Assembly (NCBI GenBank): GCA_964016885.1
Contig: OZ024741.1
Coordinates: forward strand, 99,262,001-99,326,000
DNA from: Eledone cirrhosa
Taxonomy: Eukaryota
Direction of reading: 5' to 3'
Length of the DNA stretch: 64,000 nucleotides
Under the pieces are notes generated by a model. That model was not told the DNA's origin. It saw only the letters and a program-made list of their open reading frames with translations, and ran no database searches. Of the stretch, positions 6,179 to 46,444 are shown piece after piece (the first letter of the stretch is position 1; the number at the start of each line of letters is the position of its first letter). Made by a program: the position numbers and the translations under genes.

Positions 6179-6406
6179 ATGGCTGCCCCATCGTTATCGA
6201 GTATGACCATTGCACGATATACCATTATTAATAATTATCAATTAATTCTATCGTGCAATGCCTGTGCGTGAAAATTTTTTTTAAAGTGAGGAAAAACTGT
6301 GCACTGAGCCAATCCCACTCTCTGAACAACAGTAACTATAACCTGGAAAAAAGAAAAGATCAAGATCATCGCTAACTACTGAGTCGCAAGTTTTATGTCG
6401 GAGTTA
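6179..6406 (+). mobile_element. (CATA)n-inserted structured non-coding element, type A (3'-truncated)
   Basis: ATGGCTGCCCC..CGTTATCGAGTATG head and shared GCAATGCCTGTGC..CCAATCCCACTCTCT core. Confidence 0.75.
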
Positions 6407-6419
6407 CATACATACATAC

Positions 6420-6892
6420 ATCATCTGTCCCGTAGTCTGGTGGACAGCACAGATGACCTGGCAACCAGCTCCTTCCATTCCTCTCGTCTCTCCGCCCTCC
6501 TCATGGTTACGCCCAGCCTCATGTCGTCCTTCTATCTCTTTCTCTGTCTGCGTCTCTTCCTTCCTCCTTGTATTGGTCTCTGCAGGACAGTCTTAGCAAG
6601 CCCTGCAGATCTTGTCACGTGCCCGTACCATCTCAATTTGCGTTTTTTTTTTTTTTACAATGGACAGCAGGTCTTCGTAGGGCTTGATGGCTTGCCAAAT
6701 TCTGTTTCTCACCTCCTCATTGGAGATGCGGTCTCTCTAGCTGATGCAAAGGATCATTCTGAAGCACCTCGTCTCCGTAGTCTGTATTCTTCTTTCCAGA
6801 TCTGCTGTTATAACTGTAAGTCTTACACAATAATTATTGTCCACGACTCACAGGCATGCAAGAATATGAATATGACCAAAGAGTGCGTCAAT
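6420..6892 (-). mobile_element. RTE (BovB-like) LINE 3' fragment
   Basis: Minus strand translates to RKLRWYGHVTRSAGLAKTVLQ..QGGRKRRRQRKR, a typical RTE C-terminus. Confidence 0.7.
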
Positions 6893-6983
6893 CATACATA
6901 CATACATATACATACATACATACATACATACATACATACATACATACATACATACATACATACATACATACATACATGCACAC

Positions 6984-7335
6984 ATAGTGGCTGCCAACTC
7001 GTTTTCGAGTACGGCCACTACTTTATATCCATGTAGGAGAACCCCTACCGACGCGCTGAACGAGTGTGACTTTTTAGTCCAGCCAGCGACTTGAAAACTC
7101 TGGTACAAACACTACACTTGTGACAATTATTAACCCATAGTGCTGGGCCCTTGGTACCATGTGACGACAAGTGCGGAGAGATCTCCAGATATAAAGCAAT
7201 GCCTGTGCCGTGAAGCTTTTATAGTGAGCAAAGGCACTGCACAAAGCCAGTCCCACTCTCTTAACCAATATGATATTTACCAAAAAGAAGAACAAGTCAA
7301 CATCATTGGATACCATCAGGGTTGCAGGTGTTATA
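6984..7335 (+). mobile_element. (CATA)n-inserted structured element, type C
   Basis: GTGGCTGCCAACTCGTTTTCGAGTACGGCCAC head; homologous to 24758-24904 and 45842-46444. Confidence 0.75.
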
Positions 7336-7388
7336 CATACATACATACATACATACATACATACATACATACATACATACATACATAC

Positions 7389-7880
7389 ATCAAAGATTAG
7401 TGAAAAGGAGAATATTTATGCAGAACTGATGAGAAATCTGCAGATACTCCACTCTGATTACACCTTCTGATTTATGCCTGTGATTATTGTGGTACTGGGA
7501 TATGTTAGTAACTGCCTCAATACAAATCTTGAGAAGCTGGGCTTCACAGGAACAGAAAGAACACAACTAGTTAGGAAACTACAAGTACAATCCATTAATG
7601 GAACAGTAAAAATATGTAAAACATTCCAAAAATGTTGCATCTAATAACTGCATATACACATGTACAGATACAAAGCATATACACATGTACACATACAACT
7701 CAAAACATACACATCCACACATACAATAACATCCATATCTACACATGCATGCATGCATGCATACATACATATCTACCTAGTTGATGTTGTGTAAATTCCA
7801 ATGAGAGAGTCTTGTGTCTATGTTAGAAACTGACTCTCTCTCTATTGGTAAAACTTTGTGAAATTATAAAACCAGAAGAA
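7389..7880 (+). mobile_element. R4/Dong-like LINE 3' end (RLE C-terminus and 3'UTR)
   Basis: Near-identical to 41213-41696; ends CCAGAAGAA|CATACATA. Confidence 0.85.
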
Positions 7881-42842: not shown

Positions 42843-42949
42843 CATATATATACATATGTATACATGTATATACATATATACATATATATACATGTGTGTA
42901 TGTTTATACATTTATACATACACACATATATCCATATGTATATACATAT

Positions 42950-43199
42950 TTACACATACATACATACTGCATGTACACATGTACAGATACAAAACATATG
43001 CACATGCACACATATAACTCAAAACATACACGTCCACACATACAAAAACATCCATACCTGCACACGCACGCATGCAGACATGCATATATACCAACCTAGA
43101 TGATGTTGTCTAAATTTCAATGAAAGAGTCTTGTGTCTATATTAGAAACCGACTCTCTTTCTATTGGGAAACATTTATAAAATTATAAAGCCAGAAGAA
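42950..43199 (+). mobile_element. R4/Dong-like LINE 3'UTR only
   Basis: Matches 28460-28695; ends CCAGAAGAA|CATA. Confidence 0.8.
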
Positions 43200-44872
43200 C
43201 ATACATACATATTACATACACACATGCATACATACATAATTACATACACACACGCATACATACATAGGTATTACATGCATGCACACACATACATACATAC
43301 ATACATACATACATACATACATACATACATACATACATACATACATACATACATACATACATACATACATACATACATAACTAGTCGTGCTGAAATTTTA
43401 GTATATGGTATCATATGATTTTTTAACTGCAATATGACTGCAACAGTTTATGATGACTGCACATAAATGCGAACTGTATCACCATCTTACCGAACGTCTG
43501 TCGGGAATATTAGTTTAACATTTAATACTATATGTTATAAGATGTTGGTTTCATTTGATAGAAATAAAATACGACAGAAAACGTAAAAAAAAAAAAGGAC
43601 GATAGATCTTTGCTGCGAATTTTTTTTAAGGTCACAATTGACATTTAAATAATATAGCTGCTTTTCTATATTTATTTAAATAACTCTTCGAGAGTTTCTT
43701 GGTTAATTGGCGTCACGGGAGACATGTTTGGTACGTATTTCTCACGGTTGGAGAGTCGCTTGATACGCACTTCTGTTTGTGTGGTCTATAGTTGCACATA
43801 TTTTGGATAGAGTCGAGTGTCTGATGCAAGCATTCAAACCTCTCCTGCTTCTATCTATCTTAATCAATTCGGCGCCATTATATGTTTTATATAATACGTG
43901 ACTCGACCTTCTATTAACAGCTACAAAATATCCATCAAATCTATAATAATAATGGAATATAGTTCTGAAATATATTTCAGATTATATGGTATTAAATACA
44001 TTATGCATGAAACAAGACATAATTATAGTTACAATGACATTGATCAAAAGTCTACATCAGGAGTGTGCAACATATTCCGTTGGCGGGCCACTTTTGAACA
44101 TAGGTAGTAAATTGGCAGGATGGTGAAGCCTTTTTTCATTCTGGGTCCAAATCCTTTGCATTTCATCTTACCGGTGTCGGTAGTATAGAGTACCAATCAC
44201 GTGATGGAGGGGGTACAATTTAATCAAATTGCCCTTCTTGCAAATCGTTGGCCTTGTGCCTCAATTAAAAACCTTTTTTTTTTATATATACATATATAAG
44301 ATTTTTATGAATGAAACAGTTCTAGTCCTTTAGAAGTCATTTCTATAATAAAATAGATACATTTATATACATACACACATACATAGAGAGAGAAAGAGGG
44401 GGAAATGCCGTTTGGTCGTCCGTCGTTGATCGAACTCATGATGAAAAGATTTCCATTCATGACAACCACTTTTTGTAGGCATCATATACCAGGAACTAAA
44501 GCCGATGGTATGGTATTGTCAGAGGAGTATTTGGCTGTTATTTTTAGCACAAAAAACCGTCATGTGAGACTCCCGAAGATGGTGGTGACTGTGAGTGTGG
44601 TAAGTAGGGTGGAGCAGGTGGATGAAGTTTCTAGTACAAGGATCGACGCTAATATATTCGCATGTCACTCACGAATTTCGGAAGTTTTCTCTCAACACAC
44701 AAAGGTGTTGAGCTATGACAAGATAGGTTGTTTATCTTTTCCTTTTCTTTCTTTCTGTTTGCTGTTTTTTCTTGGGGCGTGGGTATATATGTATGTGTAT
44801 TTGCTCGATTTTAAAGTATGTATGTGTAATTATATGTATGTGTGCTTGCATATATATATATATATATATATA

Positions 44873-45230
44873 TATATTAATAAGAGGAATTCCAACTTTG
44901 TCTGATTTACTCGTTTTATTTACAATCCTTTAAAATTTATAATGTTATTATAATGAAATAGTATGATAGAATATTAAATTCTAAGTGTTAATGGAACAAG
45001 TACTGTGGTGACAGTCAAGTTTGCAATTTTCAACTGTTGAAAATTGCAAACTTGACTGTCACCACACATTATGAACCTGAAGATTGCGAAAGCATGAAAG
45101 TACTTGTTCAATTAACACTTAACATTTAATATTCTATCATACTATTTCATTATAATACCATTATAAATTTTAAAGGATTGTAAATAAAACGAGTAAATCA
45201 GACAAAGTTGGAATTCCTCTTATTAATATA
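44873..45230. repeat. About 355-bp fold-back (nested inverted repeat), PLE-like
   Basis: 44873-45003 is the reverse complement of about 45098-45230; inner perfect palindrome at 45004-45066. Confidence 0.9.
45072..45110 (+). ncRNA. Minimal type I hammerhead ribozyme
   Basis: TGAAC-CTGAAGA-tTGCgaaaGCAt-GAAA-GTAC-TT-GTTCA; 5-bp stem I, palindromic AGTACT stem III, CUU triplet. Confidence 0.8.
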
Positions 45231-45841
45231 ATCTTCTATACACAATCATACACACCCGTGTATATATATATATATATATATATTTATATATATATATATA
45301 TATATATGAATGTGACTGCGTGTGCCTGAGAGTATGTATAGATGCGTGTACTTTTGCATGTATGTGTTTACGTGTGTTACGAAAAAAGAAAGAGAGAAAG
45401 ATTACTATTCATGTTTCCAGCGATTCTTTGCTTAAACTTTAATCTGTTATTTTAATAAATATTTGCTCTACGGCTCTTATATATTTGATATATATTTATC
45501 CTTATCGAGCCCTCTTTGGATTTTAGTCTTCCAATTTATTATTATTACTATATATATATACGCATATATTTATATATACATACGTATACACACACACACA
45601 CACACACACACACACACACACACACACACACACACACACACACACACATATATATATATATATATATATATATATATATATATATATATATATATATATA
45701 TATATATATATATATATATATGTATATATGTATATATATATATATATATGCATATTACGTATATACACACACACACACACACACACACACATATATATAT
45801 ATATATATATGTGTATATATATATATGTATATATATTTATG

Positions 45842-46444
45842 TCAGGTCACCAGATGGTGCTACAGGTAACATGTATGCCAGTACAACCTGTCTCATGGTC
45901 GGGTCGTTGGCGACTAAACTGGCAACCCCACCAAGGTTTCTTGGTGACAAGGGTGACTTTGGACATCCTGCAGGTGAAAAACAAAACCTGTCAAAAGGGC
46001 AAAGGAGCTCTTAAGAGTCAATGGCCATCCAAAATCACCGGGAGAGATGACCCCTTAGCCTTTGTCAAGGGAGAATTCTAGAAGGAAAACTCTGATATAA
46101 CACCTGCAGTCCTGATGGTATCTAATGATGTTGACTTGTTCTTCTTTTTGGTAAATATCATCTTGGTTAAGAGAGTGGGACTGGCTTTGTGCAGTGCCTT
46201 TGCTCACTATAAAAGCTTCACGGCACAGGCATTGCTTTATATCTGGATATCTCTCTGCACTTGTCGTCACATGGTACCATGGGCCCAGCACTATGTGTCA
46301 GTAATTGTCACAAGTGTAGTGTTTGTACCAGAGCTCTCAAGTCGCTGGCTGGACTAAAAAGTCACACTCGTTCAGCGCATCGGTAGGAGTTCTACATGGA
46401 TATAAAGTAGTGGCCGTACTCGAAAACGAGTTGGCAGCCACCAT
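45842..46444 (-). mobile_element. Structured element type C (full length, ends in the type B 3' module)
   Basis: Reverse complement of 6984-7335, continuing into GGATGGCC.TTGACTC...GACCTGACAT. Confidence 0.8.

Follow-up and report, generated by a model that had tools for sequence, protein, structure and literature searches.

Non-coding retroelements in microsatellites of Eledone cirrhosa: probable derivatives of RTE-type LINEs, with a predicted pairing between their 5' and 3' regions

The genome of Eledone cirrhosa is 3.0 Gb in size and rich in microsatellites. The present analysis concerns a family of structured repeats in a 64,000-nt stretch of it (assembly GCA_964016885.1, contig OZ024741.1, positions 99,262,001 to 99,326,000), hereafter the window, to whose positions all element coordinates refer. 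Here, I propose that these repeats, of types A, B and C, are very probably non-coding, internally deleted derivatives of long interspersed elements (LINEs) with a single open reading frame (ORF), likely of the RTE clade, which have kept the 5' untranslated region (UTR) and the 3' end of their parents; by sequence comparison, this origin can be read directly from A and C and is probable for B. An original prediction, made from the letters of the window, had listed 11 segments in three types. All 11 are present where it placed them and the three types stand, but the elements number 10, since 'B29585' belongs, as its 5' part, to the A copy at 29584-30189, and types F and G exist too.

The first parent, RTE-A, came to light as a LINE ORF end with a homologous zinc finger in the flank of one C locus. 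It has 1530 candidates at 99%, and its single ORF encodes a protein of 1181 aa with an APE endonuclease, a reverse transcriptase (RT) and three C2H2 fingers; open frames of that length occur in about 124 of 150 scored copies, as counted by eye. RTE-A (loci L181-L230) is very young, with more than 100 intact ORFs, and carries microsatellite and poly-T tracts in both UTRs; several of its copies have further sequence in common upstream of the core. Positions 59-365 of the A core match the RTE-A 5' region at 284 of 307 nt (92.5%), a region present whole in 15 of the 20 copies fetched, and the end of type A equals the RTE-A terminus, with 100% identity over the last ~50 nt. The supposedly unrecognised RNA head of the elements, beginning with GGCTGC, is thus the 3' terminal hairpin of a LINE read backwards: a pattern search showed 24 of 30 RTE-A copies to end in the type A 'head' taken as reverse complement, and a 25th differs by one change.

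Type C derives from a second family, RTE-C (252 candidates), whose protein is 57% identical to that of RTE-A. Its positions 1-431 come from the RTE-C 5'UTR (92-98% identity; whole in 6 of 10 fetched copies) and its positions 429-610, 182 nt in all, from the ORF end and 3'UTR of the same LINE (95-97%), so that it retains the last zinc finger of RTE-C. A full-length match to LINE UTR sequence, which the original prediction had named as what would overturn it, therefore exists for both A and C. As to B, its middle resembles, by eye, the RTE-C 5'UTR just before the start codon, with 73% homology, and the type likely consists of a whole 5'UTR followed by about 45 nt of 3' end. None of the three types has coding capacity or a small-RNA (Pol III) head, and both 5' truncation and target-site duplication, marks of retroposition, are present on them.

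The sense strand of the elements is the (TATG)n strand, opposite to the one originally chosen. In 855 kb of sequence from 170 loci that had been fetched on account of other queries, bystander C copies were scored by the end they had lost: it is the one away from GGCTGC in 21 copies and the GGCTGC end in 3, two of them fusions to another LINE, and 6 copies are whole (p=2.8e-4). Truncation at the 5' end is the usual outcome of LINE copying, and the GGCTGC end is therefore a 3' end rather than a 5' start, in agreement with the match to the RTE-A terminus. Along the same line, the C2H2 finger frame of type C lies just before its end on the (TATG)n strand, and on that strand the C consensus, built from 30 copies, contains the conserved RTE 5'UTR domain CTAGGAGAAGGAAAACTCTGA exactly (21/21 nt). 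OegopSINE and Sepioth-SINEs are shown with this domain in the supplementary material of PMC5786205. A and B carry diverged forms of it; in the window, the 21-nt motif as published is not matched with 3 mismatches allowed, an exact copy being present only in the genome-wide C consensus.

The hairpins and the shared core described in the original prediction are confirmed in A, B and C, as is the more general notion of a non-autonomous retroelement family with a selected RNA fold. Comparison of four consensus sequences shows double-sided changes in 9 of the 35 pairs of the core hairpin, whose energy is -33.1 kcal/mol, and none of 500 column shuffles reaches that compensation or that energy; in real copies, 9 of 36 pairs are compensated. 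Read on the opposite strand, the hairpin keeps its 9 changes but reaches only -16.3 kcal/mol, because the G-U pairs are lost there. As judged by homology, the core is RTE 5'UTR and not a new head, and it resembles by eye RTE-3_AMi 216-292 and WALLSI.

Of the origins once considered for the element body, a ribozyme, an IRES-like element or a LINE UTR, the last holds. The elements match no tRNA, no Rfam family and no Pol III box, as the original prediction had it: an Rfam scan gave nothing beyond chance in the element bodies and no ribozyme family either at the gathering threshold or at E<=10, and an HDV-like fold was not found in a by-eye look. It could still be argued that the 5' ~200 nt of B, C, F and composite A act as a self-cleaving ribozyme or as a portable promoter module that sets RNA 5' ends. 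This stretch is indeed conserved and structured, ribozymes are reported in some RTEs (PMC5786205), and in two loci (L386:~1070-1345 and L392) positions 1-275 of type C run, at an identical junction, into the 5'UTR of a distant family of RTEs; these loci represent a chimeric LINE that has taken over the 5' module of C. The Rfam result covers these 5' ~200 nt as well, however, and young RTE-A copies do without them, so that such a role seems unlikely.

An even less probable account, to which hardly any credence can be given, is the one first proposed, in which the elements are parasites of the R4/Dong LINE, an RLE LINE, lie on the CATA strand and bear a new structured 5' head starting with GGCTGC. 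Elements and Dong do have CATA arrays in common, one Dong family starts with ATGGCG and a truncated Dong copy at 13125 with ATGGCTGC, and type C folds well on the CATA strand. Yet blastn finds no match between the elements and either the Dong copies of the window or two Dong 5' ends, the elements run antiparallel to Dong instead of in its orientation, and the supposed head equals the RTE-A terminus. The opposite strand is favoured by the polarity of truncation, by the reading frame of the zinc finger and by G-U wobble alike, and the Dong model is refuted, since the elements match RTE-A and RTE-C in full at both ends; the partner is an APE/RT LINE of RTE type. The copy at 13125, considered as a fourth type or a parent, is a truncated Dong 3' end. 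This young 3' fragment (window 13120-13262; L031-L034) has 844 candidates at 99% and starts with ATGGCTGC beside CATA; the junction is common to 4 of 30 loci, which may reflect a hotspot of truncation, although the query was biased towards it.

Parents and derivatives alike have (TATG)n or (TA)n as insertion targets and lie antiparallel to Dong. The claim of microsatellite targeting is thereby upheld, but the flanks extend beyond the CATA arrays to which it had been confined. Intact 3' ends of SINEs (short interspersed elements) and LINEs taken together are followed by RTAT in 149 of 176 cases, against 3.6% of positions in a random sample (20.7% after AT); the sequence that follows is GTATGTAT 75 times, ATATATAT 25 times and ACATACAT never. 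Target duplications, measured on 42 full-length C copies, have a mean of 17.4 nt against 6.1 in shuffled pairs, and they reach 20 nt in 13 of the 42; shuffled pairs reach at most 8. Judging from these junctions and duplications, most of the flanking microsatellite is target, apart from a short CAT tail.

A plausible course of events would begin with transcription by Pol II from the LINE 5'UTR, after which the ORF protein would bind the 3' hairpin ending in GCAGCCAYCAT; it would nick the CATA or ATAT strand at AT/A and prime through a 2-nt AT overlap with the RNA end. Such a nick and overlap agree with the link between tail and target described in PMC6007223. Reverse transcription would often halt early, giving 5' truncation, and long target duplications would result at insertion. 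The endonuclease and RT of the parent likely copy the derivatives into (TATG)n and (TA)n microsatellites. Of lesser interest is that the same microsatellite is entered by an APE LINE on one strand and by an RLE LINE on the other.

A possibly new point emerges from the stem that closes what had been called the variable domain, for it is predicted to join a strand derived from the 5'UTR to one derived from the 3'UTR. The predicted stem pairs CATTGCACGATA with TATCGTGCAATG in A, CATTGCTTTATATC with GATATAAAGTAGTG in C and CATCGCTTGATA with TATCAAGCGATG in F, and that of B is similar except for one bulge. The stem sequence differs in each of these four lineages, and the best predicted partner of each among A, B, C and F is its own 3' strand: duplex energies are -21 to -30 kcal/mol within a lineage against -8 to -18 across lineages, and at most 1 of 500 shuffles is as good as an own-lineage duplex. 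The pairing persists in full RTE-A and RTE-C, with the strands about 4 kb apart, and in RTE-C it is the best site in the element (-21.4 against -16.8 kcal/mol for the next). Among published vertebrate RTEs in the supplement of PMC5786205, a set biased in that its author picked them for having bipartite SINEs, pairs were recognised by eye and after the fact in BovB (10/10), RTE1_LA (15/16) and RTE-3_AMi (10/10), and more weakly in RTE-11_AMi.

It is tentatively suggested from these predictions, as something that may quite plausibly hold, that many RTE LINEs loop their RNA, the 3' edge of the 5'UTR domain pairing with the part of the 3'UTR that immediately precedes the terminal hairpin, and that the RTE protein recognises the joint structure, of which the stem would likely be a part. 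If true, joint recognition of both ends would explain why RTE-dependent SINEs are bipartite. Kojima 2018 (PMC5786205) remarks that bipartite derivatives arise from only a few LINE clades, 'for unknown reasons'; if the stem is required, that question would be answered, and it would also become clear how proteins of the RTE/BovB type choose their RNA. The Eledone genome supplies four co-varying natural versions of the stem, together with an active parent of over 100 intact copies. No mention of 5'-3' pairing was found in the portion of the RTE literature covered, to which Okada and Hamada 1997, Gogolevsky 2008, Akasaki 2010, Suh 2016 and Repbase/Dfam do not belong, and no solved RTE structure was found.

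The same stem might also exist without any role in recognition, either because it brings the two ends together for an RT jump across the ORF, or because it formed only once the deletions had happened, as a local hairpin by which the short RNA is stabilised. SINE A has a longer stem than RTE-A (-21 against -16 kcal/mol), and the published examples are all LINEs chosen for having given bipartite SINEs. The presence of the stem in two full-length LINE families whose proteins are 57% alike, where different sequences form it at a corresponding position, speaks for more than a by-product of deletion, as does its being the best site within 4 kb of RTE-C; moreover, deletion breakpoints vary (C keeps 150 nt of ORF), yet both stem strands are always spared. 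A stem without recognition is, on this evidence, conceivable though rather doubtful.

Several results weigh against the readings preferred here. With regard to joint recognition, the cognate site of RTE-A is only the second best in that element, a distant RTE family (RTE-b) shows no consistent 5'-3' site in 2 copies, and the stem pairs in only one of two type G copies. A first prospective pattern gave 8 matches, of which 6 are decayed F, one is a type G 5' strand and one is unrelated, while a second gave no match. With regard to strand and origin, folding of whole elements yields z-scores of -2.9 (A), -1.7 (B) and -2.0 (C) on the sense strand and -1.6, -1.5 and -4.3 on the other, so that C as a whole folds better on the strand originally chosen. 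Searches for a parent LINE of B or F were negative, with only sister families turning up for B. The assignment of the parents to RTE is likely, from the single-ORF domain layout, UTR homology and protein motifs.

Other candidates for a parent were rejected. RTE-E copies, considered for B, have their flanks and one truncation in common; they represent one multiplied insertion without a 5'UTR. A search with PF14529 matched what look like LINEs of CR1/L2 type, none with A, B or C as UTR; L138 and many of the matches represent a young LINE, CR1/L2-like, with numerous open frames of 957 aa. A search with PF20049 led to two further RTE families, whose ends differ. At L321-L340 and L351-L360, an RTE fragment with B-like and A pieces has unique flanks in common, as seen in 4 upstream flanks; it is a single insertion that has been multiplied as part of a larger repeat or duplication.

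Genome-wide searches gave at least 2379 candidates for A, 5461 for B and 4976 for C, sets that overlap between the types. The fourth type F, with 3132 candidates, follows the same plan; the old type G has that plan as well. In a sample of 40 evenly spaced 10-kb stretches (400 kb), the family accounts for ~1.3% (5145 of 400,000 bases), confined to 6 of the 40 stretches. The composite layout of type A, a B/F-like 5' part followed by the A core, occurs in 20 of the 21 A loci picked up by script (29 fetched).

Within the window, that composite is seen in full at 29584-30189 (+), where a B/F-like 5' part of 190 nt (29584-29775) is followed by a purine-pyrimidine spacer and the A core (29846-30189). 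The other A copies lie on the minus strand: one is 5'-truncated (6176-6406, core positions 123-353, 92.6% to the A core) and comes after the tail of an unrelated fragment of an RTE (6400-6880), one is a complete core (39139-39491) whose spacer extends to a Dong copy at about 39600, and one (42042-42843) is a core interrupted by a 453-nt Helitron-like insert (42104-42556). A similar insert, with hairpin and CTAG end, sits in another A copy (L276:5621-6049); the two are 73% alike, in opposite orientations, and both lie within the AT-rich loop of the end-pairing stem.

Type B is full length at 28773-29298 (-, positions 1-529, 90.2%) and at 31941-32470 (+), the latter with the RTE 5'UTR motif at 32207-32226, the 5' strand of the end-pairing stem at 32352-32367 and the 3' terminal hairpin at 32443-32469; a 5' part (positions 1-327) lacking the 3' end lies at 38692-39006 (-). 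Type C is 5'-truncated at 6984-7335 (-, positions 259-610, 97.2%) and at 24758-24913 (-, about 455-610), where the zinc-finger remnant spans 24825-24890. Its full-length copy, 45841-46444 (+), starts with 431 nt of RTE-C 5'UTR and contains the conserved RTE motif (46078-46095), the 5' stem strand (46228-46243) and the C2H2 finger remnant (46315-46380), followed by the 3'UTR and the terminal hairpin.

Two further repeat families were noticed in the window. An abundant SINE-like family of ~190 nt is represented at 4245-4435, 11283-11475, 20234-20425, 52963-53153, 56108-56464 and 58639-58825, among others, and an RTE-like LINE family (48500-49910, 5146-5704 and 56577-57178) has an RT 31% identical to that of RTE-A and different ends.

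As to known systems, R4/Dong uses the same CATA/TATG arrays as the elements but differs in sequence, orientation and endonuclease. RTE-A resembles RTE-2_OV of Octopus vulgaris, an RTE for which PMC9115989 describes one ORF, a C2H2 finger and a 3'UTR rich in microsatellites; the likeness is one of description only, RTE-2_OV having 1109 aa against the 1181 aa and three fingers of RTE-A. With the Ceph-SINEs (SepiaSINE, Sepioth-SINE, OegopSINE), the elements have in common the conserved RTE 5'UTR domain, but unlike them the elements show no tRNA head with A and B boxes, and the RTE 3' end of the elements is known. The closest relatives in design are the bipartite non-autonomous RTEs, an already known kind to which the elements belong and of which Bov-A, RTESINE1/2, WALLSI3 and RTE-N1/N2_Lch are well described (Kojima 2018, PMC5786205). 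In those, a LINE 5'UTR is likewise joined to a LINE 3' end without ORF or Pol III head, and it is to a 5'UTR piece of this group that the conserved core was likened by eye. The Eledone elements differ from them in being longer (350-610 nt), in the zinc-finger remnant of C and the borrowed 5' module of A, in their strong targeting of (TATG)n and (TA)n, and in having parents that are still active.

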